Shown here piece by piece: positions 1 to 19,204 of a DNA stretch of 21,523 nt; position 1 is the first letter of the stretch, and every line of letters begins with the position of its first letter. A program made the position numbers and the translations under genes. Source of the stretch: Candidatus Micrarchaeota archaeon. Lineage in GTDB: Archaea > Micrarchaeota > Micrarchaeia > Anstonellales > Anstonellaceae. The stretch spans positions 1 through 21,523 of the forward strand of contig DUFS01000027.1 in assembly GCA_013331805.1 (NCBI GenBank). The letters are read 5' to 3'. The notes beneath the pieces were generated by a model. That model was not told where the DNA came from. It saw only the letters and a list, made by a program, of their open reading frames with translations, and did not search any database.

Positions 1-1
1 A

Positions 2-1378
2 TTCATGAACTCGCTTCAAAAAGGGAACAGTTTTTTTCAGAGGAGGCAAATCCCCAAGTTTCAGCAGCATGGACAGCAGCATTTGCTCTGAAGATTTCAG
101 GCTTTTGGTGATGAATCCCCTGGTGATGGCCTGGAAAAGTTCGAGCTCGTCCCTGACCAGCCGGGTAACGAGGAAATCCTTGCGCACTTTCTCGGTGGCG
201 TTTTTCCCAATGGCTTCTGCTTCCCGCTTGTGCTTCAGCAGGTAGCTTATCTTTGTTGCGCAGTCGTCGATTCCATCGCACAGGAGTCCATTGACTCTGT
301 TTTCTATCTGGAGTGGGATGCCGCCCACCCGGCTCGCCACTACCGGCTTTCCCTTCCACATGGCTTCGGTGACGGTAAGGCCGAACCCCTCTCGGAGAGA
401 TTTTTGCACCACCACGTCCGCCCTCCTCTGCAGCGCGTTTACCAGCCTGTCGCTCTGCACGGTCAGGAGGGAGATGTCCTTGTCCTTCTCGGCTTCGGAA
501 TAGGCGTTCCTGAAAATTGCGTCCCCTTCCGGGTCATCTGCCGCCATGCCGCCCATCAGGACAAGCTGGCAGTCGATTTCCTTTTTCACCTTCCTGTACG
601 CGTGTATCACGCCTAGGGGGTCCTTCCAGGGGTCGAAACGGGAAACCTGAAGTATCATGGGCTTCTGCGAATCGATTCCGTTCCTGCTAAGCTCCCTTGC
701 CACCTCCCAGCTTGAGAGCCTGCGGTTTTTCTCAGATAGCGGGTCTATTGCGGGAGCCATGAAATAGTGCGGCTTTCGAAGGGAGGTTTTGTACTTTCTT
801 GCAGAAACCACTATCGCCTCGTAATCGTTGAGGTATTTTTTCAAATACCTCCAGGTTTTCCTGTTCGGGGAAGTGAGGTCCAGATGGCATCGCCAGACCC
901 ACGGCTGCTTCTTCTGCAACTCTGCAAGGCTCAGCAGCAGCGGAAGAGGCTTGTATAGCGAGGGCGACTCCCTCCTGTAATGCGCCACCATCCCGCATGG
1001 CTGGGGGTCATCTATGACGACCATGTCGTACCATTCAAGATTCATGAAGCTGGAGTTCTGGGAGATGGTCGCCTCGTAAGTCGTGATGTCTTCGCTGGTC
1101 AGCTCGACTTTCATCCCCTGGAGGGAATTGTGCATCTTCTTGGTTACCATGAAAAAGTCCCTGTCACCTCTCAAGAGGCGCCATTCGGTTTTCAGGCCGG
1201 CTTCGTTCAGAAGCGGGATGTAGGATGTGAGCATCTCCGCGACGCCTCCCCCGTAATAGGTGGAGTTCACGTGGACCATCGATTTTTCCGCAAGCTTTGC
1301 GCCCATCTTGTAAATCTGCTGCACGCAGTCTTCTCCGACGAACTCAGCGTACTTGTCAAGTTTTTTCAACTGCATCAT
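2..1378 (-). CDS. treT: Trehalose synthase TreT (GT4 glycosyltransferase), 3' end truncated by window edge
   Basis: Translated by hand; not in the ORF track because there is no stop before position 1. The frame is open for 459 codons from ATG 1378 (MMQLKKLDKYAEFVGE). TreT motifs: VHVNSTYYGGGVAEML, KKMHNSLQG, IDDPQP, WVWRCHLDLT, PAIDPLSEKN, QVSRFDPWKDPLGVI, QKSLREGFGLTVTEAMWKGKPVVASRVGGIPLQI. Its start overlaps the otsB stop (ATGA). Confidence 0.9.
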   Translation of the reverse strand, partial: MMQLKKLDKYAEFVGEDCVQQIYKMGAKLAEKSMVHVNSTYYGGGVAEMLTSYIPLLNEAGLKTEWRLLRGDRDFFMVTKKMHNSLQGMKVELTSEDITTYEATISQNSSFMNLEWYDMVVIDDPQPCGMVAHYRRESPSLYKPLPLLLSLAELQKKQPWVWRCHLDLTSPNRKTWRYLKKYLNDYEAIVVSARKYKTSLRKPHYFMAPAIDPLSEKNRRLSSWEVARELSRNGIDSQKPMILQVSRFDPWKDPLGVIHAYRKVKKEIDCQLVLMGGMAADDPEGDAIFRNAYSEAEKDKDISLLTVQSDRLVNALQRRADVVVQKSLREGFGLTVTEAMWKGKPVVASRVGGIPLQIENRVNGLLCDGIDDCATKISYLLKHKREAEAIGKNATEKVRKDFLVTRLVRDELELFQAITRGFITKSLKSSEQMLLSMLLKLGDLPPLKKTVPFLKRVHE

Positions 1379-2079
1379 CCCCAGGCAAGCTCATGTTTCA
1401 GGAACTGGAAGAGCATGCGCCCGCTTATTTTTCTCACGCCTTTCATCCTCGTTTCATGGGATTTTATCAGCGCGCCTTGGAAATTGGGAAGGGTCGACGC
1501 CTTCCGTATTGCCTCCCCGTCAGAATAGTCATCCCCTACAAACACGATTCGTCTGTTCCTGTTTCCTGCGGCAATGCCCCAGAGGACCTGGCTCTTTGTC
1601 TTCGCTTTTTTTGGGAGGAATTCGATGCATTTCCTGCCCCTTATCATCCTGGAACACTTATTCGCCTTGTCCAAAAGACTTGACAGCGCCATCATGATTT
1701 TCGCCTCGCGCATCCCAGATTTTCTGAAGTGCAGCGCAAAGCCCGATTTCTTGCTTTCCATGACAACCCCGCGAATGCCCTTCGCGAATTTTGCCGCCTC
1801 ATTTTCCAGATCAGCCATTGCGCGCGTTTTTACCAGTCCCTCATTGCCATGCAGCCCTATCACCCTGATGCCGCCGGCGCCCACGAGCTGGCGCTGCACG
1901 AAGTCTCGCGGTCTTCCAGTCAGTATTACTACTTTGGCAACGCAGGCGATTTTTTCAAGCTCCGCCTTCGTTTTCGCAGAAATTTTTGCCTGTGCTGGAT
2001 TCGGCACAACCCTTGCCAAGGTGCCGTCAAAATCCAGTATTACCAGGGGTTTTTTCGCCCTCACGCCGGTCTTTGCCAT
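1375..2079 (-). CDS. otsB: Trehalose-6-phosphate phosphatase (HAD IIB family)
   Basis: HAD motifs LDFDGTL, LTGR and FVGDDYSD, plus TPP-like GLHGNE, ESKKSGFALHFR and GRKCIEFLP. Start moved to ATG 2079 (MAKTG), about 21 nt downstream of a TATA-like box. Confidence 0.88.
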   Translation of the reverse strand: MAKTGVRAKKPLVILDFDGTLARVVPNPAQAKISAKTKAELEKIACVAKVVILTGRPRDFVQRQLVGAGGIRVIGLHGNEGLVKTRAMADLENEAAKFAKGIRGVVMESKKSGFALHFRKSGMREAKIMMALSSLLDKANKCSRMIRGRKCIEFLPKKAKTKSQVLWGIAAGNRNRRIVFVGDDYSDGEAIRKASTLPNFQGALIKSHETRMKGVRKISGRMLFQFLKHELAWG

Positions 2080-2100
2080 GGAGCGGTTGGGGGCAGGAGG

Positions 2101-2157
2101 AATAAAAACCGTTGGGCATCCGGGGCGCATGGGCGGTTTGCGAATACACATATAAAA
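2101..2157. promoter_or_regulatory. Divergent archaeal TATA-box promoters for otsB-treT and the MscS gene
   Basis: TTTTTATT on the minus strand (2108-2101) lies about 21 nt before the otsB ATG. TATAAAA on the plus strand (2151-2157) lies about 21 nt before ATG 2179. Both are AT islands in a GC-rich spacer. Confidence 0.6.
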
Positions 2158-2178
2158 GTTTGGCGCACACATGATGGC

Positions 2179-3015
2179 ATGCCAATCGAGGATGTCCTAT
2201 TGGGGCTTGGGCTTGACGCAAGGGACCTTGCAGTAGCCGCGCTGATACTCGTGTTCGGCTACATCATTGGAAAGACTGTCAAGCAGTTCATGCTCAAGAT
2301 ATCCGAATCGAGCGGAGTTCGGCAAAAACTCCGGTTCGGTATCGAGAAGGAGGTGAAAAAATTCGGCTTCAGCGTAGATTTCACCTACATGGGCGCCCTT
2401 GTCCTGAAATACGCCATATACCTGCTTGCGATATTCCTTGCCTTCAGGGCGCTGAACATCGAGATAGGCATGAACACCGTCCTGTTGCCCCTCATAGCTT
2501 ACATCCCAAATATCCTCGGCGCGGCAATCATCCTGCTCGTCGGAAGCGCGATAGTCGAGATAGTGGCGGACATAGTGAAATACAGGCTCCGCGACGCGAT
2601 TGACGAGAAAGCCGGCGAGATCGGGCCGATGAACATCTCGACGCCCATAGCGTCCTTGGTAAGGTATTTCCTTTACGCCATAATATTCATAACCGCATTT
2701 TTGCAGCTAGGCATTAGGGCAGAGGGACTGCTGGCATTTGTTTTGGCCGCCTCAGTGGTTTTCCTGGCTGCTGCAGCCATTCTTGCCGTCTTCTCCCTCA
2801 AGGACCATGTTCCCAACCTGACCGCGGGATTGTACCTCAGGCGGAGCAAAATAATTGGAACAGGTGACACGCTTACTGCCTGTGGCATATCAGGAAAAGT
2901 GGCTGGGATAACGACACTTGCGACGATAGTCAGAAACAAGGGCGGAACGCACTACCTCCCGAATGCGAAAATAACCGGGGGCGTTTTTTCAATAAACAGG
3001 AAGAAGAGGAGTTAG
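2179..3015 (+). CDS. Small-conductance mechanosensitive channel (MscS family) with extra N-terminal TM helices
   Basis: Several hydrophobic helices, a TM-helix-repeat-like IAYIPNILGAAIILLVG, and an MscS-like core FSLKDHVPNLTAGLYL..GD..ISGKVAGITTLATIV..YLPNAKI. Start moved to ATG 2179 because the longer ORF overlaps otsB antisense. Confidence 0.8.
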   Translation: MPIEDVLLGLGLDARDLAVAALILVFGYIIGKTVKQFMLKISESSGVRQKLRFGIEKEVKKFGFSVDFTYMGALVLKYAIYLLAIFLAFRALNIEIGMNTVLLPLIAYIPNILGAAIILLVGSAIVEIVADIVKYRLRDAIDEKAGEIGPMNISTPIASLVRYFLYAIIFITAFLQLGIRAEGLLAFVLAASVVFLAAAAILAVFSLKDHVPNLTAGLYLRRSKIIGTGDTLTACGISGKVAGITTLATIVRNKGGTHYLPNAKITGGVFSINRKKRS

Positions 3016-4289
3016 CCCTGCAAAAGGCCATTGTAGAGCTCAAGGTGCTCGCGGTACCCTATTTCCGAATCGAATTTCTCGCCGAAAATCCTCTTCCCCT
3101 CCTCCCCCATCCTCGCCCTTAGCCCCGGATCTTTGGCAAGAATGGTCAGCTTCCCCGCAAGCTGTCCTGCGTCCCCTGTCTCGAACAGGTAGCCGCTGAT
3201 TCCGTCTTTTATCTGGACCGGTATGCCGCCAATATTGGAGCCTACCACCGGCTTTCCGAACAGCATGCCCTGCGAGACGGTCAAGCCAAAGCCCTCGTGG
3301 ACGGATGGCTGCACCACGGCATCGCAGGTTGCGTAAAGCTTGTTCACTTCTGCGTCGGGAAGGTAGCCGGTGAAGACGGTTTGCCTTGAAACCCCCAGCG
3401 TATGGGCAAGAGAAACCAGCGATTCCCTGTAGCCTCCGCGTTCCTTGCCCATGAGCTTCTGCGTGAATGAGCCGTTGCCCACAAAGACGCACTTGGCTTC
3501 CGGAAACTGCTTTGCGACCGTTTCCATAGCCTGCACCAGTACTTCCTGCCCCTTGCGCGGGTCCATGCGGCTTACGCACAGTATGAGGAAGTCGCTCTTT
3601 CCAATGCCGAGCTTCTCCCTTGCGTCGTTTTCGCCCAGGACGGTGTACTCTCCTGCATCTATGAACGGGTAGATTCGGGTTATTTTATTGTCCGGAAGGC
3701 CGGCTGCGGACGCGGCGGACACGTATTCCTCGGTTGACAGGACCACGCGGTCGTAATCGGTCATGTAGCCCGCGATGAACCTTTTCCAATTGTCAAGCAT
3801 CCCGCCGCTGAAAGGTATGTGGAACGTGAAAACCTTGGGCACCGCAAGGTCCTTTAGCATGCCGGCAAGCGGGAGAAGCTGGAAGTCGTGGATGTGGAGA
3901 ATGTCAAATGGCTTGTAACCGTACGTGTCGAGCACGTATTCCTTTATCTTCCCACTGACTTTCAGATAGTCGGAAAATTCCGGAAGTGTCTTTGGGTCAG
4001 GGGCTATCTCCCCCGAAAGGTGGGTGGCGTTGAGCAGGCATTCCTTGAACCTCATATAGCCTGCCATGGTTTCTGTGCCGACCCCCTCCACGTTCGTGCG
4101 CAAAAGGGGTATGCCCGAGGAAAAATCTATGGCATCGAGATTCTGCGCCTTGAAATGCATCACGCGGAAATCATGGCCGTCCCGGATGAATCTTTTGCCC
4201 AGGGCATTGACGTATTTCGTAAGCCCGCCCATGAATGGCAGGAAAGATTGGCTTACGCTGCATATGCTCAGGTATTTGTCCATGGGCAT
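3012..4289 (-). CDS. GT4 (GT-B fold) glycosyltransferase, probably trehalose-related
   Basis: GGLTKYV N-terminal loop, DILHIHDFQLLPL..FTFHIPF, VSRMDPRKGQ and QPSVHEGFGLTVSQGMLFGKPVVGSNIGGIPVQI. TATA-like TTTTATA at 4312-4306. The start may be 4289 or 4283. Confidence 0.85.
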   Translation of the reverse strand: MPMDKYLSICSVSQSFLPFMGGLTKYVNALGKRFIRDGHDFRVMHFKAQNLDAIDFSSGIPLLRTNVEGVGTETMAGYMRFKECLLNATHLSGEIAPDPKTLPEFSDYLKVSGKIKEYVLDTYGYKPFDILHIHDFQLLPLAGMLKDLAVPKVFTFHIPFSGGMLDNWKRFIAGYMTDYDRVVLSTEEYVSAASAAGLPDNKITRIYPFIDAGEYTVLGENDAREKLGIGKSDFLILCVSRMDPRKGQEVLVQAMETVAKQFPEAKCVFVGNGSFTQKLMGKERGGYRESLVSLAHTLGVSRQTVFTGYLPDAEVNKLYATCDAVVQPSVHEGFGLTVSQGMLFGKPVVGSNIGGIPVQIKDGISGYLFETGDAGQLAGKLTILAKDPGLRARMGEEGKRIFGEKFDSEIGYREHLELYNGLLQG

Positions 4290-4326
4290 ATCTCCAGCGG
4301 CAAACTATAAAACCATGACGCGGAGT

Positions 4327-4344
4327 TGCCAGGTTATCCTGGCA
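4327..4344. repeat. Perfect inverted repeat TGCCAGG-TTAT-CCTGGCA (candidate operator or hairpin)
   Basis: 7-bp arms with a 4-nt spacer in the intergenic region, about 15 nt upstream of the GT4 gene's TATA-like box. Confidence 0.5.
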
Positions 4345-4402
4345 GAAGGTCTGATGCGTAGGAATCTAACCCCCTAGAGGCGATAGCCCTCACCTAGCTT
4401 TC

Positions 4403-4822
4403 CTACTTCTTTTCGGTAATCATCCTGTAGAAGTTGTAGGCAAGCACAATCCCTGCAAGCATCAGCGTGCCGTGGAAGCCGTAGTCTATGTAAAGCAGCC
4501 CCTGCGTGTCCATGCCGTTTGATATATGGAAGTTGTCGTGCGGCCACCATGAGACCATCAGCCACGAAATGGCCACAAATGACTGGGTCGCCATGCTTCT
4601 CATCTTCCCATCCATCCCGCTTATTGCCTTTCATCCGAAGTAGATGAATGCCGTTCCGGCTCCGAAGAAGAGAGCTTCTATTGCAGATAGCAGAATGAAG
4701 AAGGGCAACTGCGACTCAGTAGGATGGATGTCCGGGGATGGCTTCCACAGCACTGGGCCAAGCGCAAATGCCGGTATTCCTATCACGAAGGTCATCAAAA
4801 CCGCCTTTTGCCAATCTTTCAT
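4403..4822 (-). pseudogene. Small multi-TM membrane protein (139 codons) interrupted by one in-frame TGA at 4633-4631
   Basis: Track ORFs 4631..4879 and 4403..4615 share a frame: TTC GGA TGA AAG GCA ATA AGC GGG ATG reads FIYFG*KAISGMDGK. GAGGTG Shine-Dalgarno before ATG 4822 and TTAAATAAA at 4864-4856. The C-terminal half carries WWPHDNFH..YGFH. Confidence 0.7.
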
Positions 4823-4965
4823 CAAGAGCACCTCGTTAAAGCGCAGGCATTGGTGTTTATTTAAGATCTGACAGCGCAAAAATGGGTAGCCGCCAATATT
4901 CCAAATCAGGACTCCCGGGGCTGTAAACTCTTTTATTTTTATATATCCAAAATAGTATCGTGGAA

Positions 4966-5415
4966 ATGGGAATCAGGGCGCAGGGCGCAACCGAGTACAT
5001 AATTCTGGTTGGCATAGCCATGTTGGTGGCGCTCATAGGCATTGCCGCAATCAATTTCTTCAGCAATATGTCAGACTCCCAGCTAGTGCAGTCAAGCATA
5101 TACTGGGTGGAAGCGACCCCGATTGCTATCGTGGAGCACTCAGTTTCAAACTCCACAGGTGTCGCAAGCATCGTGCTGATGAACAACGACCCCTCTGAAG
5201 AGGTGACAATACTCCGAGTTGGATTGGGCAATGCAACAAACTCAACGCAGTTCATGCTCGGCTCAGGGAAGAAGGCCACCGTGTCTGTCGCAGGGCTTGG
5301 AACGGGGAAGGCCGGGGAAATCTACGACCTGAACGTGACAATCAGCTACAGGACGTCCAGGGGCTTGGTGAAGGTTCAGCATGGCAGCAAGAACCTGGTC
5401 GGAAAATACGCTTGA
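4966..5415 (+). CDS. Class III signal peptide protein (archaeal type IV pilin-like)
   Basis: MGIRA|QGATEYIILVGIAMLVALIGIA has a basic residue, a cleavage site, Q+1, E+5 and a hydrophobic helix, followed by a beta-rich domain with N-x-S/T sequons. TTTATATA at 4938-4945. Confidence 0.8.
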   Translation: MGIRAQGATEYIILVGIAMLVALIGIAAINFFSNMSDSQLVQSSIYWVEATPIAIVEHSVSNSTGVASIVLMNNDPSEEVTILRVGLGNATNSTQFMLGSGKKATVSVAGLGTGKAGEIYDLNVTISYRTSRGLVKVQHGSKNLVGKYA

Positions 5416-5424
5416 ATCCATCCA

Positions 5425-5441
5425 CTTTTTTTAATATTTTT
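5425..5441 (+). terminator. T-rich tract after the pilin-like gene (candidate archaeal intrinsic terminator)
   Basis: A run of Ts begins about 10 nt after the TGA, at the junction of two convergent genes. Confidence 0.35.
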
Positions 5442-6330
5442 GGGCAAGCTCGAGGACAAACCTGACATAGCGAGGGTCCCCGTTGTAGTCATAAACAGCC
5501 CAGAAGTTCTTTCCAGCCTCCTCAAAGCCTTCCATGTTTGTGGCCCCTTTCTTCATCAGGTATTGCGCAGTCAGGTATATTGAAGTTTTGAACGAGGAAA
5601 GCTCCTCCCAGCTTTTGCTTTCCGGGCGCTCAAGTTTCCTGTAAAGCGTGGACGGAAGGTACTGGCCCGGGAATATCGCGCCTTCCGATGAGCCCTTGAC
5701 CGAATAAGGGTCGACATTGTAATCCTTGCAGAGCCTCAAAAAATCCGCAAGCTCTTCCAGGATTTTCGCTTTTTTGCGCGGCTGGTTCTGTATTTTGGTC
5801 ATGAACAGGTTGAAAACAGGGTAATCCGCCTCAGCAAGCCCGAACTTGGTCTCAATGCCCAGGATGGCTGCGATTAGCTCTTTGGGCGCATTGTATTTTT
5901 TCTCCGCCTTTTCAAAGTCCTCCTCATAAAGGCCGATAAGCTTGGCAAACTTCCCCATCACCGCAAGCTCGAAAAAGTGGTTGTCCTCCTTGTATTTCAA
6001 ATACACTTTCTCGCTCATGGAATCATACTGGCGAAGCAGCCTTGCCCTGTTCTCTGCTTTGGAGGTTTTTTTCACTTCTTCTTTCTTCGGCCTGACGAAT
6101 CCTCCTTCTGGGATTGGCTCGGGCTTGGGGAATCCAAGAAGGCCGAGCCTGGCGTCACCGAACCACGCCTGCAGCCGGTTTTCCGAAAATCCGTTTTTCC
6201 TTAGGAAATCCATTGCTTCCTTCAAGGTTTTTTCTTCAGGAGGAATGCGGACTTCGCGCTGCTCTGCCACCCGTGTCGCATCAGGCTGGACGGTATTCAC
6301 TTTTAGTCTGCTTTCAATCTGAAAGAGCAT
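5431..6330 (-). CDS. Lytic murein transglycosylase, MltB/Slt35 (SLT_2) family-like
   Basis: KYNAPKELIAAILGIETKFG (putative catalytic E160), EELADFLRL, KGSSEGAIFPGQYLPST, AQYLMKKG and NFWAVYDYNGDPRYVRFVLELA parallel the ordered MltB motifs. Confidence 0.8.
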   Translation of the reverse strand: MLFQIESRLKVNTVQPDATRVAEQREVRIPPEEKTLKEAMDFLRKNGFSENRLQAWFGDARLGLLGFPKPEPIPEGGFVRPKKEEVKKTSKAENRARLLRQYDSMSEKVYLKYKEDNHFFELAVMGKFAKLIGLYEEDFEKAEKKYNAPKELIAAILGIETKFGLAEADYPVFNLFMTKIQNQPRKKAKILEELADFLRLCKDYNVDPYSVKGSSEGAIFPGQYLPSTLYRKLERPESKSWEELSSFKTSIYLTAQYLMKKGATNMEGFEEAGKNFWAVYDYNGDPRYVRFVLELAQKY

Positions 6331-6353
6331 GCTTTCCCTAATGCCTCAAAGTG

Positions 6354-6394
6354 TTTTTAAGGCTGGCTTTCGTGGCAGGCAAATAGGTTTTAAA
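6354..6394. promoter_or_regulatory. Divergent TATA-like boxes for the transglycosylase and membrane-protein genes
   Basis: TTAAAAA on the minus strand (6360-6354) and TTTTAAA on the plus strand (6388-6394) each lie about 23 nt from the respective start codon. Confidence 0.55.
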
Positions 6395-6417
6395 CATTTG
6401 ACAGGCTAACCGAATGC

Positions 6418-7353
6418 GTGAAGGGAAAAGCACTCCTGGCGCTCTTTGTCCTGCTTCCGCTGGTTTCTTCAGCGCAGGCTGGAAATCTTGCGAAGGAAGC
6501 AGAACCAATTGCCAAGGAGCTCCAGATGGCAATGGCTATCGGGGTGCTGCTCTGTTACATATTCGCAGCAGGAAGGATAGCCGACTTCCTCCAGTCTTCA
6601 GGCAGGAGCGTTTCGAAAAAAGAGATAATCTACGCGCCGATTGCCTACGTTCTCTTTTCCATGATCGGCGTGATTTTCTACTTCGGCTCTGGCTCATTTG
6701 CCCCTCCGCAAAACACCCTGATCACCAATGCAGTTTATCTGCTCCTCATACCGCTTGGGATTGCCATAGGTGTGGGCACAGTGGTGCTGCACTCATTTTT
6801 CCGGGACAGGCTCAATGCGGTGCAATCACTTGACCTTTCGATGAAAATTATCCTTGCCCCGATTTTTGATGGCATGAGGGGCTACTGGGTGGCCATTGGC
6901 GCTGCGGCGCTGGTTGTCTTCATCTCAGGCGCGTCATATTTCTCATCAGGAGGCAATTTCTCGCTGGTGACATTCGACTTCCTGCTTGCATCCATACTGG
7001 TCGCGATTTACTTCCTCTATAAGGCGTTCACCTCCAGGACCAACGAGGGAAGGGCGTCAAACATTGTGACGATGCTTACAGTTCTTTCCCCAAGCCTGCT
7101 CCGGCTCTATTTCAGGGAAATGGTCTGCGCATGGCTCACCAAAATACCGATTGATTTTTTCAGGTCCTGCCCGCTTGACCAGGTTGGAAGCGAAGTCACC
7201 CTGGCACTTTCCGTGGCAGCCACCCTGCTGGTGCTGGTTCCCGTCATACCGCTCATCTATGCCGTAATGGTCAATGCGCTTCGCGTTTTGAGCGTTCTCC
7301 AGGTGCTCACAAGAAAAGAGCGTGCCTTCAAGCCAGTTGACAAAACAGACTAG
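6418..7353 (+). CDS. Hypothetical polytopic membrane protein with N-terminal signal peptide
   Basis: GTG start, signal-like MKGKALLALFVLLPLVSSAQA, then about 7 hydrophobic segments. No family recognised. Confidence 0.75.
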   Translation: MKGKALLALFVLLPLVSSAQAGNLAKEAEPIAKELQMAMAIGVLLCYIFAAGRIADFLQSSGRSVSKKEIIYAPIAYVLFSMIGVIFYFGSGSFAPPQNTLITNAVYLLLIPLGIAIGVGTVVLHSFFRDRLNAVQSLDLSMKIILAPIFDGMRGYWVAIGAAALVVFISGASYFSSGGNFSLVTFDFLLASILVAIYFLYKAFTSRTNEGRASNIVTMLTVLSPSLLRLYFREMVCAWLTKIPIDFFRSCPLDQVGSEVTLALSVAATLLVLVPVIPLIYAVMVNALRVLSVLQVLTRKERAFKPVDKTD

Positions 7354-7431
7354 CGCCCTAGCCGGATCTGAAACCCAACCATATATATTTGTTGTCTGCT
7401 TTCATCCAATCGATGAATCTGGGGGTGCAAC

Positions 7432-8520
7432 ATGGAAATCGAACAGCCTAGCATTCTTGATGCCTCTGAGCCGGTTTCTAAAGCGGTAAACGAGATATCG
7501 AAAAGCGGGCTGCCCGTATTCATTGTGAAAAACGGCAAGTATTTCGGGCTAATCGACGAACGTTCAATAAGGCAGAGGCTTTCAAATCCCGACAAGGAAA
7601 AATGCGAAACCATCGCAGAGCGCACCCCTTCGCTTTCCCAGGATTCCACCGTCATGGATGCCTGCAACGCATTTTTCGCAGGACGATTCAAGGCAATTCC
7701 CGTTATTTCGAAGGGCAAGATAGAGGGAGCGATAACCAGGCAGACCCTGCTTTCCGAGCTTCTCAAGGAAAAAATGCTCTCCAAAAAGCGGGTGCTTGAG
7801 GTGATGACCTCTCCGGTGGCTTCAATTGACATATCTTCCACTGTCGGTCATGCAAGGAGCGAGCTTCGCAGCCACAACATCAGGCGACTGGTGGTGACCG
7901 AAGGGGGAAGGATAGCCGGCCTGCTTTCCGTGTTCGACCTTGCAAGCTTTGTGTCCAACCCGCGCCAGTCAAACGCATTCTACAGGGGAGGGGAAAAGAC
8001 CACAATGGACTCGCGCCCGATCTTGTCCTACGTGAAAAAGCAGGTCGAAACCATAAGCCCGACTGACTCGCTTTCAAACGCGGTTGCAAAAATGCTGGAC
8101 AAGCGCGTGGCTGCCCTCATCGTCTCGGAAGGAATGAGCCCTGTCGGGATTGTCACCGCAAAGGACATACTCCACGCAGCCCTTGCCTATGAAAAGAGCA
8201 CCCGCGTATTCGTGTCAGGCTTGCCGTACGAGAACCGCGATTACCAGTCGGAAATCGTTAAGGAGGGGGAAAAGCTCCTGGACAGGCTGGAGAAAAGCTT
8301 CGAGGTTTCCTCGCTTGTCTTCCACGTAAAGCGGGAGGGCGCTGGCTTTTCGGTGCGCTCCAGGCTGGACGGGAAAAAGTCGATAAACGCAAGCGCAAGC
8401 GATTTCAGGCTGGAGTCCGCGTTGCGCATGGTGATTGCCGAGCTTCGAAAGATGGCTGAAAAAAACAAAATGACAGGAGTTGAAAAAAAGAGGCGCGATG
8501 CCAAGCTGAGGGAGGAATGA
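7432..8520 (+). CDS. 4xCBS-domain protein with C-terminal HPF/RaiA-like domain (Hib-like archaeal ribosome hibernation factor candidate)
   Basis: Four CBS units (LPVFIVKNGKYFGLI; AIPVISKGKIEGAIT; RRLVVTEGGRIAGLLS; ALIVSEGMSPVGIVTAKDI). A roughly 105-aa tail follows a beta-alpha-beta-beta-beta-alpha pattern ending INASASDFRLESALRMVIAELRK. GGGGTG SD and ATATATAT upstream. Confidence 0.8.
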   Translation: MEIEQPSILDASEPVSKAVNEISKSGLPVFIVKNGKYFGLIDERSIRQRLSNPDKEKCETIAERTPSLSQDSTVMDACNAFFAGRFKAIPVISKGKIEGAITRQTLLSELLKEKMLSKKRVLEVMTSPVASIDISSTVGHARSELRSHNIRRLVVTEGGRIAGLLSVFDLASFVSNPRQSNAFYRGGEKTTMDSRPILSYVKKQVETISPTDSLSNAVAKMLDKRVAALIVSEGMSPVGIVTAKDILHAALAYEKSTRVFVSGLPYENRDYQSEIVKEGEKLLDRLEKSFEVSSLVFHVKREGAGFSVRSRLDGKKSINASASDFRLESALRMVIAELRKMAEKNKMTGVEKKRRDAKLREE

Positions 8521-9425
8521 TGGGGCTTGAAACGCAGCTGTGCAAAATGAAGCTTCGCAATCCCACTGTACTTGCTTCTGGCATAAGGGGGAACAACGCC
8601 CATCTTCTCATCCGCGCCGCCAAGGAAGGAGCTGGCGCGGTCACCTCCAAATCCTGTTCGCTTGCCCCGAGAGAGGGGCACAATAACCCGACCATGATAA
8701 ATACGCCCGAAGCAATGCTCAACGCAATAGGGCTTTCCAATCCAGGAGTCGAGGAGGAAATCGGCGAAATCCGGGCGGCTGTCATGGGCGCCAAAGTTCC
8801 GGTGATAGCCAGCATAGTCGCATTCTCAATTGAGGACTTTGGCAAGGTGGCTGAAAGGATTTCAGAGGCTGCGCCGCACATGATAGAGGTGGACGCAGCC
8901 TGCCCAAACACGCACCGCGAAGGCAGGATGTTCTCGGCCTGCGCCCAGGATGCCGCTGCCGTTGCCAAAGCTGTTGAAGAAGCCACAAACATACCCTTCT
9001 CGATGAAGCTCTCGCCCGATGTTCCCAACATTGGGGAAATCGCGCAGGCGTGCGTGGATGCTGGCGCAGATGCCATCACGGCAATAAACACCATGGGAGG
9101 CATGTACGTTGACGCTTACGCAAGAAGGGCGGTGCTCCACAACTGGTTCGGGGGGGTGAGCGGTCCTGCGTTAAAGCCGGTTGCGCTCAAGGCGGTGTAC
9201 AACATAAGGAAGGCGGTCGGCCCGAAAATCCCCATAATTGGCACAGGAGGCATTTCCACAGGAATGGACGCGATTGAGATGATCATGGCAGGCGCAAATG
9301 CCGTGGGCATCGGCTCTGCCGTGGTTCTTCGCAAAAACGTATTCAAGGGCGTCTGCAGTGAAATGAGCGCGTTCATGAAAGAGAAAGGCTACAAAAGGCT
9401 CTATGAGCTCAAGCTGGAAGAATGA
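8517..9425 (+). CDS. pyrD: Dihydroorotate dehydrogenase, family 1B catalytic subunit
   Basis: LRNPTVLASG, VTSKS, MLNAIGLSNPG, ACPN, KLSP, AINT, GGVSGPALKP and IIGTGGI; adjacent to pyrK. Confidence 0.95.
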   Translation: MMGLETQLCKMKLRNPTVLASGIRGNNAHLLIRAAKEGAGAVTSKSCSLAPREGHNNPTMINTPEAMLNAIGLSNPGVEEEIGEIRAAVMGAKVPVIASIVAFSIEDFGKVAERISEAAPHMIEVDAACPNTHREGRMFSACAQDAAAVAKAVEEATNIPFSMKLSPDVPNIGEIAQACVDAGADAITAINTMGGMYVDAYARRAVLHNWFGGVSGPALKPVALKAVYNIRKAVGPKIPIIGTGGISTGMDAIEMIMAGANAVGIGSAVVLRKNVFKGVCSEMSAFMKEKGYKRLYELKLEE

Positions 9426-10189
9426 TTCTCATGCTCCCCCAAGTCGCAACAGTCGCCAAAGCCGAAAAGGAAAACAGCACTGTAACAACACTCACTCTCA
9501 ACATCAGCTTGCCCAGGGCAATCCCTGGCCAATTCGTCATGGCCTGGCTACCCGGCTTTGATGAAAAGCCCCTCAGCCTCGCAGGGGCAAGCCCGGTGAA
9601 GATTTCAGTCGGGGAAAGGGGCCCGTTCAGCAGCAGGCTTTGCGGCTTGAAAAAAGGCGGCAAGCTCTGGGTCCGCGGCCCATATGGCAGGGGATTTGAG
9701 CTTGAGGGGAAAAAAATCCTCCTGGTGGGCGGCGGCTACGGCTTTGCGCCCCTGCGGTTCCTCGCGGACCAGGCAAGGAAAAAGAAAATAACCGCAACGG
9801 CAATCTGCGGAGCGAGGAGCAAAAGCCTCCTGATGGCGCCTGCTTCCTGCAAGACGCTATTCACAACCGACGATGGCTCTGCCGGAATCAAGGGCAATGT
9901 GCTTGCTGCAATGGAAGGGCTATTCGCCAGGGAAAAATTCGACACAGTTTACACCTGCGGCCCTGAGCGGATGATGGGATCGGTTGCCAGGCTTGCGAAG
10001 AAAAAAAAGGCGGATTGCCAGCTTCTCCTGGAACGGTACATGAAGTGCGGAATAGGTGTCTGCGGGCACTGCGCCTGCGGCGACAGGCTAGTCTGCTTTG
10101 ACGGCCCGCGCTTCGGATACGAAATGCTCTCCAATCCGGAATTCGAGCGTGTTTGGCGCGACAAGGCTGGTCACAAGGTGCCAATATGA
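9422..10189 (+). CDS. pyrK: Dihydroorotate dehydrogenase electron transfer subunit
   Basis: PGQFVM, KPLSL, RGPYGRGF, VGGGYG, TDDGS, CGPERMM and the 2Fe-2S motif CGIGVCGHC..C. Confidence 0.95.
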   Translation: MILMLPQVATVAKAEKENSTVTTLTLNISLPRAIPGQFVMAWLPGFDEKPLSLAGASPVKISVGERGPFSSRLCGLKKGGKLWVRGPYGRGFELEGKKILLVGGGYGFAPLRFLADQARKKKITATAICGARSKSLLMAPASCKTLFTTDDGSAGIKGNVLAAMEGLFAREKFDTVYTCGPERMMGSVARLAKKKKADCQLLLERYMKCGIGVCGHCACGDRLVCFDGPRFGYEMLSNPEFERVWRDKAGHKVPI

Positions 10190-11442
10190 TCCTTATTCAG
10201 GGCGGCAGGATTGTCACACCTGAGGGAATATCTTCATCCGACATTCTCATTGAGGGCGAAAAAATTGTGAGGATAGGAAAAGGCATCAGGCAATCCGGCG
10301 CGAAAATTATTGATGCAGGGGGGCTGTTCATCCTGCCCGGGGCAATCGACCCGCACGTTCACTTCCGCGACCCGGAGAATACTTCAAAAGAGGATTTTTC
10401 CACAGGAACGGCCTCTGCGCTTGCCGGTGGTGTGACAACAATAATCGACATGCCCAATTACCGAAATCCGCCCACCACCACCATTGCCGCATACAATGAA
10501 AAAAGGCTGATAGCGGCCTCCAAGGCGCGCTGCGACTACCAGCTGCGCTTCGGAGCTTCTGAGTCGAATTTCCAGGAAGCGGCAGGAAGCGGGGCGCCCT
10601 CGCTCAAGATTTTCCTTTCGGACACAAAAAGCGATCTTCAGTGCTCGCGCGAGGCGGCTGTGATGCATTTCAAGGCTTTCCCAAAAGGCAAGCCTGTCTG
10701 CGTGCATGCGGAGGACAGGGACAGGATTGAAAAGCGAGTTGGGAAATTCAGGTCCCAGTCGCAGGTGCAGGACAAGCTGGTTTCGCAGATCGCATGCGAG
10801 TTTTCGCTTCGCGAGGCAGGAAGGCTGGGCAGGCGCGTGCACATCTGCCACCTCACCACCGGGCTTGAGATCGAGCTTTGCCGCCGCTACAAAAACGCGA
10901 CCTACGAGGTAACTCCAAATCATCTTTTCATGTCCACTGATGACATCAAGCGCCTCGGGCCCCTGGGCAAGATAAACCCCCCGCTTCGGGACAGGCGCGA
11001 GCAGGCTGCGCTCTGGCGCAACCTGAATGACGACACCATAATCGCCTCGGACCACGCGCCGCATTTGATTTCGCACAAGCTGGAAGGCTCGCCAGGCTTC
11101 CCTGGCGTTGGCACATTGCTTCCGCTCATGCTGGATGCGGTGAATGAAAAGAGGCTCAAGCTTGAGAGCGTTGCCAGGATGTGCTCATTCAATCCTGCTT
11201 CTGCATTCCTCCTGCATGCAAAAGGCTCGCTTGCCCCTGGTTTCGACGCAGACATCGTGCTTGCGGACATGAAAAAGAAATGGAGGATAACTGCTGAGAA
11301 CCGGCTCTCCAAATGCGCCTGGACGCCTTTTGAGGGCAGGGAAATCAAAGGCAGGATAGAAAAAGTGCTGCTTCGGGGCAATCTTGCGTACGACTCCGAG
11401 GGCGTCATTTCCAAGCCTGGAAAAGGAAGGGAATTGCTTTAG
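10186..11442 (+). CDS. pyrC: Dihydroorotase
   Basis: PGAIDPHVHFRDP, GGVTTIIDMPN, VHAED, HICHLT, EVTPNHL, KINPPLR and ASDHAPH. Start moved to ATG 10186, which gives an ATGA overlap with pyrK. Confidence 0.93.
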   Translation: MILIQGGRIVTPEGISSSDILIEGEKIVRIGKGIRQSGAKIIDAGGLFILPGAIDPHVHFRDPENTSKEDFSTGTASALAGGVTTIIDMPNYRNPPTTTIAAYNEKRLIAASKARCDYQLRFGASESNFQEAAGSGAPSLKIFLSDTKSDLQCSREAAVMHFKAFPKGKPVCVHAEDRDRIEKRVGKFRSQSQVQDKLVSQIACEFSLREAGRLGRRVHICHLTTGLEIELCRRYKNATYEVTPNHLFMSTDDIKRLGPLGKINPPLRDRREQAALWRNLNDDTIIASDHAPHLISHKLEGSPGFPGVGTLLPLMLDAVNEKRLKLESVARMCSFNPASAFLLHAKGSLAPGFDADIVLADMKKKWRITAENRLSKCAWTPFEGREIKGRIEKVLLRGNLAYDSEGVISKPGKGRELL

Positions 11443-11459
11443 GTGCGCCTTTTCCCTGC

Positions 11460-11897
11460 TCACGAAAGCTCGAGCTTGACCTGTGCCGCTTCGCCAGGGG
11501 GAAGGGCGCTCACGTTTATGAAATAGGTTCCTGCCTTCCTTATTCTGCCAAGCCCCGACTCGGTCAGGTTGAAAGCGCAGGTTTTCACAATCTGCCGCTG
11601 CCCTGATGACGAGTCCACGGTTATAACTATGTCCTGCCCGTTCACCGTTATCCCCCTCAAATTCGGCGGCATCTCGATCTCGTCCACTATGGCCGCAGCG
11701 CCGCCAAGGTATCCCACCGAGTCTGCCAGGCTGGCGAGCCTCTGGGCTGCTGCCTCGGCCTTCTGGGCCGCTATGTCCTCGCTTGCCGCATTGGACCTTC
11801 CATGCGCATAGAAAAGAAGAGGAATCAGGAAAAGCAGCATGAAGCCGATAATGATGAGAAGCTCGTTTGAAATCTGCCCCCTGAAGATCATGCGCAT
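11460..11897 (-). CDS. Class III signal peptide protein (pilin-like)
   Basis: MIFRG|QISNELLIIIGFMLLFLIPLLFY has Q+1, E+5 and a hydrophobic helix, then an amphipathic helix (AAAQRLASLADSVGYLG) and beta strands. TTTTATA at 11920-11914. Confidence 0.8.
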   Translation of the reverse strand: MRMIFRGQISNELLIIIGFMLLFLIPLLFYAHGRSNAASEDIAAQKAEAAAQRLASLADSVGYLGGAAAIVDEIEMPPNLRGITVNGQDIVITVDSSSGQRQIVKTCAFNLTESGLGRIRKAGTYFINVSALPPGEAAQVKLELS

Positions 11898-11933
11898 ATT
11901 TACCAGCCAACCCTATAAAAGGTTCACTTCGCC

Positions 11934-13442
11934 CTATTGCGCCTGGCGCTGCGCGGATTCATAGGCAGCCTGCCTCACCCTCCTTTTTTTCTCATCGATA
12001 ACTGCAGTGACCAGGACCAGGAAGAACATGGCGACCAGCAGTATGATGAGCATGGGATTGAACACGAAGAAAAGCGCCTCGCGGTTCGCAACCACAAAGC
12101 CGTCCGCAAGGGCGCTTATGTTGAATATCGAGTGGATGACGACCGCAAGGAAGACGCCAGGCACAAAGGCAAGCCTCGCGAACTTTCGGAGCTTGGGAAC
12201 CCCCCTGATGTACCCGATCGTGGTTGAAATGGCGGCTGTGAAGCAGCCGTGGGCGAGCGTGTTGAAAAGCGAGCGGTAAACTATGAGCGTGCCCCAGGAA
12301 ACCAGCCCGATTTCAAAAGGGTTGGCCTTTGTCGAGAAATAAAACCAGTTTTCCACGAACGCGAAGCCCGCGCCGCAGGTGAAGCCAAGCAGAAGTCCGG
12401 TGAGCGTGTCATTGTACTCGTGGTGGCCGGACATGAAAAGCACGCCCAGCCCCTTCATTATCTCCTCGACCATGGGGGAAACCACGGTGGTCGCCACAAT
12501 GACATACGAGGCAAGCATGAAAGCCTTGAGCTCGGATGCCACGCTGGAGCTTATTATGAGGGAAAGCAGCGCCGCGAACATGCCCCAGACGAATATTCCT
12601 GCAAAGAACCGCAACGGCTTGCCCTCCTCCCTTTTTTCAAAGTACCAGGCTGCTGCAAAATAGAAGAATGGAACCGTGAATGACCCCACCGCGGAAAGCA
12701 GCATCACCTGCAGGGCGTTTTCCCATCCGCTGCCCTGCTCTATCCCCTGGAACATCAGGGCAACGAGCACCGAAACGCAGGCAAGCTCGGCGAGAAGCAT
12801 GACGGGGTTTATCATCACGTCCGCAAGCTTTTCCTCAAAAGGCCTGCCTGCAACCTTGGGGAAAACCAGCGTCGTTAGCGTGTACTCGTCCTCCTTGATG
12901 CCCGGGCTTCGGCTGGAGTAGGCGGTGTAGCCCACAATTGAAATCAGAAGGACCAACAGCGTTCCGATGATCGGGACATAAGTGGCTATCGCGCCTGACA
13001 GGCTCCGGTTTATTTCGCTCTCGTAACCGCTCCAGTCCTCCTCCACCCAAAAGTCGCTGCCATAAAGCTCCCCGTCGCCTCCCCTCCCAACGACCGCGTA
13101 GTGCGTTTTCTGCCTGGCCTGCTTCTCATAGCGCACCTCCACCTCAAGTTCGATGATGGTGGTGGAATCTGCAGGAAGCCCGCCCAGGAACTTGACGAAC
13201 TCCCACTCGCCGGAAGATTCCCGGATCAGGTAGACGGGCATTGCCATTTCAAACGGGTTTTCAGCCTGGATTTTCACGCCGATTAGCTGCGGGGAGCCCG
13301 TCAGCACGGTGTTCTCCATCGAAACCTCTGTGCGCAGGGCTGAAGTGTACTCCGAAAGCTCCCCGGCAAGATTATCTGCCGAATATGCCGCATTGGAAAG
13401 CAGCGCTAGCGCCGCGATTATCATGAGGGCATTTGGTCGCAC
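11934..13442 (-). CDS. PrsW-family intramembrane protease with N-terminal extracellular domain
   Basis: PrsW motifs PMVEEIMKG, GAGFAFVEN, AHGCFT and HSIFN, and many TM helices. A signal peptide and a roughly 130-aa soluble domain precede them. GTG 13442 chosen as start because GGAGG lies 7 nt upstream. Confidence 0.85.
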   Translation of the reverse strand: MRPNALMIIAALALLSNAAYSADNLAGELSEYTSALRTEVSMENTVLTGSPQLIGVKIQAENPFEMAMPVYLIRESSGEWEFVKFLGGLPADSTTIIELEVEVRYEKQARQKTHYAVVGRGGDGELYGSDFWVEEDWSGYESEINRSLSGAIATYVPIIGTLLVLLISIVGYTAYSSRSPGIKEDEYTLTTLVFPKVAGRPFEEKLADVMINPVMLLAELACVSVLVALMFQGIEQGSGWENALQVMLLSAVGSFTVPFFYFAAAWYFEKREEGKPLRFFAGIFVWGMFAALLSLIISSSVASELKAFMLASYVIVATTVVSPMVEEIMKGLGVLFMSGHHEYNDTLTGLLLGFTCGAGFAFVENWFYFSTKANPFEIGLVSWGTLIVYRSLFNTLAHGCFTAAISTTIGYIRGVPKLRKFARLAFVPGVFLAVVIHSIFNISALADGFVVANREALFFVFNPMLIILLVAMFFLVLVTAVIDEKKRRVRQAAYESAQRQAQ

Positions 13443-13461: not shown

Positions 13462-15117
13462 CTAGAATGGAATCGGCACATACAATCCGATGTGCCTCAC
13501 CAGCCAGACCCACATCTTGTTAATTATGGAATTCCTCTTCTTGATTACATCCAACAGTTCCTTGAAGGCCTCTTTTTCCGCAGCCGCAAGCTTGGACTCC
13601 GTGATCTTGATGTGCTCCTTGCCGTCCACCACTGTCTTTTCCTCCTGCGAGCCTATCTGCTTGTTCGCCTGCGCGTACCAGGGGGGAAGCGAGGATTTCT
13701 TCTTTTTTATCGCAGTGATGAAGTCCTCGCTTGTCACCGCGCGCTGCTTGCCTGTCTTGAATGCGTCCCTCCAGGGGATGGCAGCCGCCTCCTCCACAAT
13801 GGATTTGAGGTCCGCGGACGCATAGCCAATGGTCGCCAGTGAGATCCTGTAATAGGTTATGCCGTGCACGGCAGGGACCTTTTTCACGTGCAGCTTGAGT
13901 ATGTCCGCCCTTGAAGTCGTGTCCGGCTCGGGTATGAATATGCTCTTGCCGAACCTTCCGCTCCTCCGGAGCGCCGGGTCCACGTCCCATGGCGCGTTGG
14001 TGGCGCCGACCACCAGCACATTCTCATTGTTGGATTCCACGCCGTCCATTTCGAAAAGCATCTGGTTGACCGCGATTTTCATGTATTGGGTGGACTGCTG
14101 CATATCCTCGCGCCTGCCTCCCAATGCCTCCACCTCGTCGAAGAAGACAATACAGGGGGGGTTCTTCCTGGCGGTCTCGAAAATGTTGTGCAGGTTCTTT
14201 TCGGTGTTGCCCACGTACATGTCCAGTATGTCCGAAATCTTTGCATTGATGAAAGCTGAGTTGCATTCGCCTGCCGCCGCCTTCATTATGAACGTCTTTC
14301 CGCATCCCGGCGGGCCGTAAAGCATGATGCCTCCCCCGGCAAGCTTCCCGTATGTCCTGGCAAGGTCGGGCTTGATGAGAGGATACACGATCGATTCGTT
14401 TATTTCCTCCTTCATCTTCTTCATGCCCGCGACTTCGGTGAACTTCATGGCAGGCTTGGTGAGGAGTTTTGCCGCGTTTATCCCCTGGTTCTGAGCTGCC
14501 TCTCCCACAGCCATGGTGCCCGAGCCGCCCCCGCCTGAGAGCTTTCCCTTTGCGATTTCGCGGTGGTTTACGGCCTCGGTGAACTGCGGATTGAGCTCAA
14601 TTGCCTTGTCGTAGTCCGCAATCGCCTTGTCCAGCTGGTTGAGGTAGTCGTACGCCAGGCCCCGGATATGGTATGCCTCGGAAAAATTCGGGTTGAGCTT
14701 GATAACTTCGGTGAAGTCCTCCACAGCCTTTTCATAGTCCTGCAGGCAGGCATAGGCGAGCCCCCTGTTGTAGAATGCCTTGAGGTACTTGGGGTTTATG
14801 GCAAGCGCGCGGTCGTAGTCCTCGATTGAGGCATTGAAGTCCTGCTTGCGGTAATACGCGTCCCCCCTGTTGTTGTATATCACAGGATTCTTGGGGTCCA
14901 GGTCGCACGACTTGGTGTAATCGGTTATCGCGCGGTCGAAGTTCTTGAGATTATAGTAGCAAAGCCCCCTGTTGAAATAGGCTTCTGAAAAAGTGGGATT
15001 GAGAATGATCGCGGTATTGTAGGCCTCGACCGCGCGCTCGTAGTCGCCCTTCTCGTAATAGGTGTTGCCCCTATGGTAATATGTGCGAGCATCGGTTGGG
15101 CTGGGCTTTTCCGCCAT
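13462..15117 (-). CDS. TPR-repeat AAA+ ATPase (single classic-clade AAA module)
   Basis: Five 34-aa TPRs, a Gly linker, Walker A GPPGCGKT, pore loop DMYVG, Walker B FFDE, SRH ATNAPWDVDPALRRSGRF and a hydrophobic C-terminal tail. Confidence 0.9.
   Translation of the reverse strand: MAEKPSPTDARTYYHRGNTYYEKGDYERAVEAYNTAIILNPTFSEAYFNRGLCYYNLKNFDRAITDYTKSCDLDPKNPVIYNNRGDAYYRKQDFNASIEDYDRALAINPKYLKAFYNRGLAYACLQDYEKAVEDFTEVIKLNPNFSEAYHIRGLAYDYLNQLDKAIADYDKAIELNPQFTEAVNHREIAKGKLSGGGGSGTMAVGEAAQNQGINAAKLLTKPAMKFTEVAGMKKMKEEINESIVYPLIKPDLARTYGKLAGGGIMLYGPPGCGKTFIMKAAAGECNSAFINAKISDILDMYVGNTEKNLHNIFETARKNPPCIVFFDEVEALGGRREDMQQSTQYMKIAVNQMLFEMDGVESNNENVLVVGATNAPWDVDPALRRSGRFGKSIFIPEPDTTSRADILKLHVKKVPAVHGITYYRISLATIGYASADLKSIVEEAAAIPWRDAFKTGKQRAVTSEDFITAIKKKKSSLPPWYAQANKQIGSQEEKTVVDGKEHIKITESKLAAAEKEAFKELLDVIKKRNSIINKMWVWLVRHIGLYVPIPF
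14581..15090 (-). repeat. Five tandem TPR units (34 aa / 102 nt period) within the AAA gene
   Basis: Units begin ARTYYHRG, SEAYFNRG, PVIYNNRG, LKAFYNRG and SEAYHIRG, and each ends in LNP, LDP or INP. Confidence 0.9.
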
Positions 15118-16378: not shown

Positions 16379-16462
16379 GGATTTCCCCGGAAAACAAACC
16401 TGCGCCATATTTAATCCTTAATACCGCATATGGGCAAGACTGGATTATCTGACATAATAGGG

Positions 16463-19190: not shown

Positions 19191-19204
19191 CAAAACCACG
19201 AAAA

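Follow-up and report, generated by a model that had tools for sequence, protein, structure and literature searches.

A compact SLT_2-type lytic transglycosylase homologue encoded in the genome of a Micrarchaeota archaeon

Lytic transglycosylases of the SLT_2 (MltB/Slt35) type, which we take to be the 'family 3' lytic transglycosylases and CAZy family GH103, include Slt35/MltB of Escherichia coli and SltB1 and SltB3 of Pseudomonas aeruginosa. The stretch of DNA analysed here (the window) comprises the first 21,523 bases of a 59,522-base contig, C21, and carries on its minus strand, at 5431–6330, a gene for a 299-residue homologue of these enzymes. The host is a Micrarchaeota archaeon (Anstonellaceae-type, DPANN) of groundwater or soil. 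The window protein has the same fold as the bacterial enzymes, the same catalytic glutamate, the same Ser/Gln/Tyr-Asn/Tyr set and the N-terminal helical part. Unlike Slt35/MltB, it has no beta domain, no EF-hand and no lipoprotein or signal sequence, and its host shows no murein synthesis genes. We consider it rather likely that an old bacterial gene has been kept by Micrarchaeota, and that it encodes a compact, probably active SLT_2 transglycosylase cutting bacterial peptidoglycan.

Enzymes that act on peptidoglycan have been reported in archaea before, as had been cautioned in an earlier reading of the window made without database searches (the sequence-only reading), and the DPANN cases include three Micrarchaeota genomes (PMC5864196, PMC8204110). 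These three genomes encode a Sec-exportable lytic murein transglycosylase, which was read as an anti-bacterial sign (Chen et al. 2018, PMC5864196). The enzymes share with the window protein the phylum, the annotation and the proposed anti-bacterial role, and may belong to the same family. The passage concerned in Chen et al. is a single sentence that assumes Sec export and neither assigns the enzymes to a family nor treats their structure, phylogeny or distribution, whereas the window copy lacks both a Sec and a Tat signal. For Pacearchaeota and Woesearchaeota, Castelle et al. (2021, PMC8204110) describe large murein-like lytic transglycosylase proteins (fam00969), and cite Rinke (2013) and Castelle (2015) as having noted them earlier. 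GH23-type enzymes are mentioned for Woesearchaeota (Vigneron et al. 2022, PMC9723730), and such enzymes also for three DPANN bins from oxygen-deficient zones (mBio 2024, PMC10936187). The giant proteins resemble the window protein in being DPANN proteins with a domain that cuts bacterial walls, and the same ecological idea has been attached to them. As presented in these texts, they are extracellular multi-domain proteins of up to 3,000 residues with GH23/SLT domains (PMC8204110, PMC9723730), whereas the window protein is a single SLT_2 module of 299 residues.

Outside DPANN, secreted archaeal peptidoglycan hydrolases kill bacteria, and a known signal peptide is present in only 67 of 210 archaeal homologues, according to the account in PLoS Biology (2025, PMC12352652). 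Woldo and Danwoldo of Halogranum salarium, the enzymes of that account, are comparable in that they are encoded by an archaeon, derive from bacteria and attack bacterial murein. They combine a zoocin-A-like peptidase and a glucosaminidase with peptidoglycan-binding domains and Tat signals, and are experimentally active; the window protein, known from its sequence, has neither a binding domain nor a signal.

Murein transglycosylases in DPANN archaea are already known, and the window gene is a further example, so that the gain is incremental. The sections on transglycosylases in the DPANN papers cited here do not describe a compact form without beta domain and EF-hand, a sub-clade without an anchor or a single archaeal grouping, although their supplements may list the family. 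The hosts and lifestyles of DPANN archaea are mostly unclear, and a conserved enzyme specific to the bacterial wall, in an organism that does not build such a wall, is among the few clues at the level of sequence that some of them interact with bacteria. In addition, expression and assay should be far simpler for a protein of 299 residues than for the giant murein hydrolases of DPANN, so that it could be a practical test case, and an SLT_2 enzyme reduced to a form that lacks beta domain and EF-hand would show what the catalytic core of the family requires.

Gene, fold and active site

The gene and the parts of it referred to below are as follows.

5431..6330, minus strand: gene for the SLT_2 (MltB/Slt35-type) lytic transglycosylase homologue, 299 residues, from the open reading frame, Pfam SLT_2, the AlphaFold2 model and VIA-align
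5638..5976, minus strand: part matched by the SLT_2 profile, residues 119–231 (profile positions 57–168 of 292)
5851..5853, minus strand: codon of Glu160, counterpart of Slt35 Glu162, the catalytic residue; conserved in all 20 aligned homologues and paired with the E of the Slt35 motif GVETRWG
6256..6330, minus strand: codons of residues 1–25, a polar N-terminus predicted to be disordered, with no hydrophobic segment (model confidence and Kyte–Doolittle hydropathy)
6354..6360, minus strand: TATA-like box TTAAAAA, 24–30 nucleotides 5' of the ATG, located by eye

The frame of 299 codons begins with ATG, is preceded by an in-frame stop five codons upstream and contains no internal stops. Its G+C content is 0.497. 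The translation carries ILGIETKFG, then GSSEGAIFPGQYLPST, then NFWAVYDYNGDPRYVRFVLEL, and three motifs in this order, as read from the translation, are far beyond chance. The position of the TATA-like box is compatible with the ATG as the assigned start. TTTAWA-type boxes, picked by eye and not against shuffled sequences, stand 17–42 nucleotides before the starts of seven other genes of the window, which encode a GT4 glycosyltransferase, a pilin-like protein, a 311-residue membrane protein, o145, a TPR-AAA protein, FKBP26 and PurH. A box of this type, again located by eye, also precedes the orthologue in a second Micrarchaeota genome, G018. Both the ordered motifs and a TATA-like box spaced as in neighbouring genes had been pointed out in the sequence-only reading, and both are present as described there.

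The same reading had called the product an MltB-like lytic transglycosylase, and profile searches and a structure prediction bear this out. Pfam SLT_2 (PF13406) matches residues 119–231 at 79 bits (E 4.8e-22), above its cut-off of 24.3, and in a six-frame search of the genome the gene scores 68.6 bits. The NCBIfam models score below their cut-offs, with 78 bits against 281.4 for the MltB equivalog TIGR02282 and 48.3 bits against 248.45 for MltB_2, TIGR02283. The score far under the TIGR02282 cut-off indicates that the window protein is a homologue and not an orthologue-grade MltB. Searches of the PDB with phmmer and the window protein as query return SltB1 (E 1.8e-13) and Slt35 (E 2.6e-11); with a profile of 20 homologues the values are 3.7e-50 and 2.6e-48, respectively.

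An AlphaFold2 model made from the alignment of the 20 homologues has a mean predicted local distance difference test score (pLDDT) of 86.6 and a predicted template modelling score of 0.83, with pLDDT below 50 at residues 1–25 only. The top eight Foldseek matches to the model are all Slt35, SltB1, SltB2 or SltB3 (E 2e-9, TM-score 0.62). With VIA-align, the model superimposes on Slt35, SltB1 and SltB3 with Z 22.0–23.4 and a root-mean-square deviation of 2.6–2.9 over 230–235 residues (5o8x, Z 23.4, deviation 2.7, 234 residues aligned; Slt35 in 1d0k, Z 22.0, deviation 2.6, 235 residues aligned). The next structural family is MltF, at Z 9.2, and goose-type lysozymes and a chitinase family have the core fold in common with the model at Z 7–8.5. 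Both the lysozyme-like core and the N-terminal helical domain are present, with model residues 29–60 aligning in the helical part.

Glu162 is the catalytic acid of Slt35 in the accounts of its active site (PMC8307938, PMC13134497). The glutamate of ILGIETKFG, which the sequence-only reading had implied to be catalytic, is residue 160 of the window protein and aligns with Glu162; it stands within the G-[VI]-E-[TS]-x-x-G motif of the MltB/Slt35 type. (Residue numbers of MltB are chain indices of 1d0k_A plus 39, read from HMMER alignments.) Seven residues, E160, S214, Q223, L258, Y282, N283 and Y288, are invariant in all 20 aligned homologues, and E160, S214, Q223, Y282, N283 and Y288 correspond to Slt35 Glu162, Ser216, Gln225, Tyr338, Asn339 and Tyr344. 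Nine aromatic residues are listed as sugar-binding in Slt35, namely Tyr117, Phe121, Tyr191, Phe192, Phe217, Phe226, Tyr259, Tyr338 and Tyr344 (PMC13134497). Five of these positions remain aromatic in the window protein (Y113, Y224, Y257, Y282 and Y288), as mapped by sequence offset and not by superposed side chains.

The window protein is a compact version of the fold. The homologue profile aligns to Slt35 chain positions 25–232 and 290–316, and the beta domain of about 57 residues between them (chain 233–289), which in enzymes of this type contributes to closing the substrate tunnel, has no counterpart. The catalytic Glu and the conserved Asn are 123 residues apart in the window protein and 177 apart in Slt35. 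The spacing is 114–128 in the 13 of 19 Micrarchaeota copies in which it could be measured, and 184–217 in the six of seven named bacterial copies that allowed a measurement. Among unlabelled homologues, 38 have the short form, 63 have the long form and 20 are unmeasurable by the pattern, indicating that the short form is not limited to the archaeal group. An EF-hand calcium site in the core domain stabilises Slt35, as stated in the description of that enzyme (PMC8307938). The EF-hand DxDxDG loop was not found in the window protein or its clade, where LERPESKSWEEL occupies the site in the window protein; the loop is retained in the archaeal homologues of G055, G044, G169 and G240. The window protein also bears a 30-residue linker insertion relative to its close kin.

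Chromosomal setting, distribution and phylogeny

The genome is metagenome-assembled (1,189,147 bases in 83 contigs), with an estimated completeness of 91.5% and contamination of 1.31%. Contig C21 has a G+C content of 0.527, against 0.529 for the genome, and its tetranucleotide profile correlates with that of the remaining bin more closely (r 0.991) than does the profile of any other of the 46 contigs of at least 10 kb. Contigs of four other public runs, from groundwater and soil metagenomes, cover the region with no joints or loose ends reported. One contig from an independent run covers 4297–7007 with 0 differences, and further bridging contigs cover 4339–5841, 5843–8500 and 5657–8500. An 18,073-base metagenome contig is collinear with window positions 1–12330 at 99.96% identity, its independence from the window's source being uncertain.

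The second genome, G018, has the same gene order as the window: the SLT_2 gene, CBS, pyrD (dihydroorotate dehydrogenase), its pyrK-like Fe-S subunit, an amidohydrolase, the 145-residue protein o145, PrsW and TPR-AAA. Between the window's genome (G000) and G018, the transglycosylases are 41% identical and the other syntenic genes 52–86% identical at the protein level (tblastn). This block, from CBS to TPR/AAA, is the only neighbourhood in common with G018, and a conserved functional neighbour was not found among the homologous loci. Three genomes of the same genus, with records titled Candidatus Anstonellaceae archaeon or Candidatus Micrarchaeota archaeon, contain homologues, of which two lie on contigs 441,876 and 249,353 bases long, and P0003 and P0153 are listed by NCBI as 'lytic murein transglycosylase' of Micrarchaeota/Micrarchaeia archaea. 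In G004, G009 and G010, three genomes of the same genus, a homologue with an anchor directly follows grpE-dnaK on the same strand, at a locus other than the window's, and the homologue of G044 adjoins a ribosomal-protein/SecY/Adk cluster. That the gene lies in an archaeal chromosome, as had been proposed, holds up on four counts: the archaeal records of the same genus, the synteny with G018, the bridging contigs and the composition. The contig itself fits the Micrarchaeota bin, and independent contigs bridge both borders of the gene.

A search with the window protein as query found a match in 13 of 61 related genomes (G000 included) and, within the genus, in five of 22 genomes besides G000. 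Of 401 genomes sampled from the phylum as a whole, 20 match the SLT_2 profile (15 of 188 high-quality ones), and three large families gave no match to it (0 of 76, 0 of 94 and 0 of 83 genomes). Among 14 control genomes, only three, all bacteria, have SLT_2 matches. A single-protein scan of genome contigs found no relative, and a narrower alignment of homologues found three archaeal and eight bacterial loci. A search of 1.84 billion representatives gave 1,260 matches at E ≤1e-3, only five of them at ≤1e-30.

Two trees were built. The FastTree tree holds 168 rows, made up of all matches of 180–450 residues from the search of representatives, 19 Micrarchaeota copies and seven named bacterial copies. 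The IQ-TREE quick tree holds 81 rows, including 60 unlabelled rows chosen as representatives of clades, with G290 (long branch) and four near-duplicates left out. In both, all labelled archaeal copies fall on one side of a split, and this set of archaeal homologues is separated from the named bacterial MltB proteins. In the IQ-TREE tree the split has a Shimodaira–Hasegawa-like approximate likelihood ratio (SH-aLRT) of 95. Its archaeal side consists of 41 rows (17 Micrarchaeota, two Nanoarchaeota as labelled by NCBI and 22 unlabelled) and its other side of 40 rows (four named bacteria and 36 unlabelled). Support is 99 for the grouping of the window protein with G018 and P0002. As to whether archaeal homologues form a clade, the trees place the labelled copies on one side of the split; a single clade or origin does not follow from it, because the tree is unrooted and most rows, including 22 of 41 on the archaeal side, are unlabelled. 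Among 30 clusters of unlabelled homologues that were looked up, an organism name was attached to only two. For the same reason, a single origin and the direction of transfer are not established.

A phage or viral origin was considered and gained no support: 50,697 phage records contain four weak matches, all to bacterial mltB or unannotated DNA, and IMG/VR contains none.

Export, substrate and competing explanations

The export screen covered the longest possible open reading frame of 19 full-length Micrarchaeota homologues, with the contig-end fragments of G053 and G296 excluded. A hydrophobic segment was called where the Kyte–Doolittle mean over 17 residues reached at least 1.45 within the first 80 residues. 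By this measure such a segment is present at the N-terminus of 16 of the 19, several of which also carry RR (Tat-like) motifs, and most relatives of the window protein are predicted to be exported or anchored in the membrane. G240 is weak in N-terminal hydrophobicity (mean 0.94). The window protein and G018 have no such segment in their first 80 residues, with maxima of 0.31 and 0.09, respectively; as predicted from hydropathy, the window protein is without a Sec or Tat signal, a lipoprotein sequence or a membrane anchor. P0151 and P0004, from other assemblies, likewise open with polar, Q/E/K-rich sequence. These four proteins (the window protein, G018 (P0003), P0151 and P0004) make up an anchor-less clade whose members are 36–47% identical and retain all catalytic residues. 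Since the anchor-less state is common to four related proteins, it is a trait of the clade and not a slip of annotation. A metagenome scan with the alignment of this clade gave one contig identical to the window and eight distant loci, with no further anchor-less members or conserved partners among them.

The rest of the genome bears on what the enzyme could act on. FtsW/RodA, a penicillin-binding transpeptidase and SLT (PF01464) were not found in the 91.5%-complete bin. The sole match to Mur_ligase_M is FolC (285.8 bits, cut-off 162.65), within a folate operon, and the pseudomurein ligases pMurE and pMurC score below their cut-offs (41.8 against 600 and 26.8 against 560 bits), both on the FolC protein. 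As to recycling, AnmK and Amidase_2/AmpD were not found in the bin, and MurQ does not rise above its cut-off there (27 bits against 302, on a 575-residue open reading frame with an SIS domain).

As genes for murein synthesis are not seen in the archaeon, the substrate would be the peptidoglycan of neighbouring bacteria. We picture a gene that was acquired from bacteria long ago and retained in part of DPANN. By homology with Slt35, Glu160 would act as the acid that protonates the β-1,4 bond between N-acetylmuramic acid (MurNAc) and N-acetylglucosamine (GlcNAc), and attack by the C6 hydroxyl of MurNAc would close the ring to give 1,6-anhydro-MurNAc. The likely use would be the opening or gripping of bacterial walls, in host contact, in antagonism or in feeding on lysed cells, and not the salvage of sugars. 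No salvage genes were found in the bin, which disfavours a mainly nutritional role and favours wall opening or attachment.

Several observations weigh against such a peptidoglycan-cutting enzyme. The missing signal or anchor, as predicted for the window protein, complicates its reach to extracellular peptidoglycan, and a contractile-injection sheath (PF04984) was not found in the genome. Beta domain and EF-hand are missing, and, mapped by sequence offset, N117, K189, I190 and S215 replace the Slt35 aromatics Phe121, Tyr191, Phe192 and Phe217; K189 and S215 deviate also from the consensus among the protein's kin, F (15 of 20) and Y (eight of 20), respectively. The transglycosylase is the most diverged gene of the syntenic block, which would also fit relaxed constraint. 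The distribution of the gene is patchy (20 of 401 genomes in the phylum, five of 22 in the genus). One old transfer into DPANN is compatible with trees that are unrooted and mostly unlabelled, and would be one way to read them. Finally, there is no RNA run among the public runs listed with the window's stretch. Taken together, the anchor-less state, the altered aromatics and the fast divergence leave room for retargeting, for loss of function or for an unrecognised route of delivery.

Retargeting would mean that the enzyme works on a glycan other than murein, for example a GlcNAc polymer in the envelope of the archaeon itself or of an archaeal host, or chitin-like material, and serves in glycan remodelling. 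The four changed aromatic positions, with K189 and S215 off the family's own consensus of F and Y, the missing EF-hand and beta domain and the lack of an export signal in the window copy would suit this, as would the core fold in common with goose-type lysozymes and a chitinase family. The residues aligned with the Slt35 active site (E, S, Q, Y-N and Y) are nevertheless invariant, the position matching Slt35 Arg188 is a basic K or R in 14 of 20 sequences, and no pseudomurein ligase scores above its cut-off in the genome. Pseudomurein is linked through β-1,3 talosaminuronic acid, which does not fit this chemistry, and we know of no SLT_2 enzyme with a substrate other than murein. We regard retargeting as unlikely. 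Digestion of peptidoglycan debris from dead bacteria, with import of the fragments for their amino sugars and amino acids, has in its favour a small genome of 1.19 Mb like those of dependent DPANN, the exported or anchored state of most relatives, and the groundwater and soil metagenomes in which the stretch is found, which are rich in bacterial necromass. Against such a nutritional enzyme, the window copy has no export signal, AnmK and Amidase_2/AmpD were not found in the 91.5%-complete bin, and MurQ scores there only under its cut-off. We hold this use to be fairly improbable.

The gene of the anchor-less clade may also be a relic of an acquired bacterial gene that is decaying or no longer catalytic and persists by chance or in a role other than that of an enzyme. 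Loss of the signal or anchor in four related proteins, the highest divergence among the syntenic genes, a patchy distribution consistent with frequent loss and the linker insertion of 30 residues in the window copy are what a relic might display. A relic would hardly be expected to keep an open frame free of internal stops, active-site residues that are invariant in four anchor-less proteins only 36–47% identical, a confidently modelled fold (pLDDT 86.6), a locus conserved in two species and a TATA-like box of its own, and we judge it quite improbable. Least probable by far is a bacterial gene misplaced in an archaeal bin through mis-binning or chimeric assembly. It is true that SLT_2 is overwhelmingly bacterial, with only three bacteria matching among the control genomes, and that the bin is metagenome-assembled from 83 contigs. 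However, independent contigs without differences bridge both gene borders, a second Micrarchaeota genome has the same synteny, homologues lie inside archaeal contigs of 249–442 kb next to dnaK or ribosomal-protein clusters, TATA-like promoter boxes are present, and the composition of C21 is the best match to the bin of all contigs, at an estimated contamination of 1.31%. The bridging contigs, the synteny, the composition and the homologues on archaeal contigs together make a bacterial or chimeric contig very unlikely.

If the reading of an active, peptidoglycan-cutting enzyme is carried further to the anchor-less sub-clade, a more speculative picture arises, to which we give limited credence. 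The sub-clade would have shed its anchor, EF-hand and beta domain yet kept the catalytic residues and a fixed housekeeping locus. If active on walls, its members would have to be delivered by an unrecognised route, for instance in vesicles, through cell–cell bridges or with a carrier protein. Anstonellaceae-type Micrarchaeota would then seem to live on bacteria rather than on wall-less archaea, which are the known hosts of the Micrarchaeota in culture. More widely, a single ancient clade of minimal SLT_2 enzymes, inherited vertically, may be common to DPANN archaea.

Neighbouring genes and minor observations

Tail to tail with the transglycosylase gene lies a gene for a protein of 151 residues (4960–5415, plus strand), in which RAQGATEY followed by a hydrophobic stretch resembles an archaeal class III (pilin-type) signal; the Pfam model Class_IIIsignal matches this pilin-like protein with E 0.62 only. 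Divergent from the transglycosylase gene, at 6418–7353 on the plus strand, a protein of 311 residues is encoded that has a signal-like N-terminus and many hydrophobic stretches and no Pfam or NCBIfam match. Neither the gene for the pilin-like protein nor that for the 311-residue membrane protein was found beside transglycosylase homologues in other genomes. Two further frames, at 15212–16408 (minus strand, 398 residues) and 17625–19199 (minus strand, 524 residues), match no Pfam family at E ≤0.001. The fusion of tetratricopeptide repeats (TPR) with an AAA ATPase at 13462–15117 (minus strand) is 86% identical to its G018 counterpart, the best conserved member of the syntenic block.

Beside the G018 orthologue of the transglycosylase, a membrane-anchored coiled-coil protein of 394 residues is encoded (L025 10258–11442, plus strand), with faint C-terminal matches to a transglutaminase core (E 0.09–0.23). 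Among the bacterial loci, L018, L019 and L020 comprise a contig from a bin titled Thermoflexus hugenholtzii whose MltB gene hardly differs from its counterparts in two bins that bear the title beta proteobacterium (end branches 0.0065–0.017), which suggests, as far as these sequences tell, that one of the Thermoflexus hugenholtzii and beta proteobacterium bins holds a foreign contig.

At the start of the window, positions 2–4289 hold a trehalose-related cluster with a TreT-type glycosyltransferase (TreT_GT1, 178 bits), a trehalose-phosphatase-like protein, a mechanosensitive-channel-like protein and a second GT4 glycosyltransferase. The cluster hints at the synthesis of a compatible solute in this small-genome archaeon.

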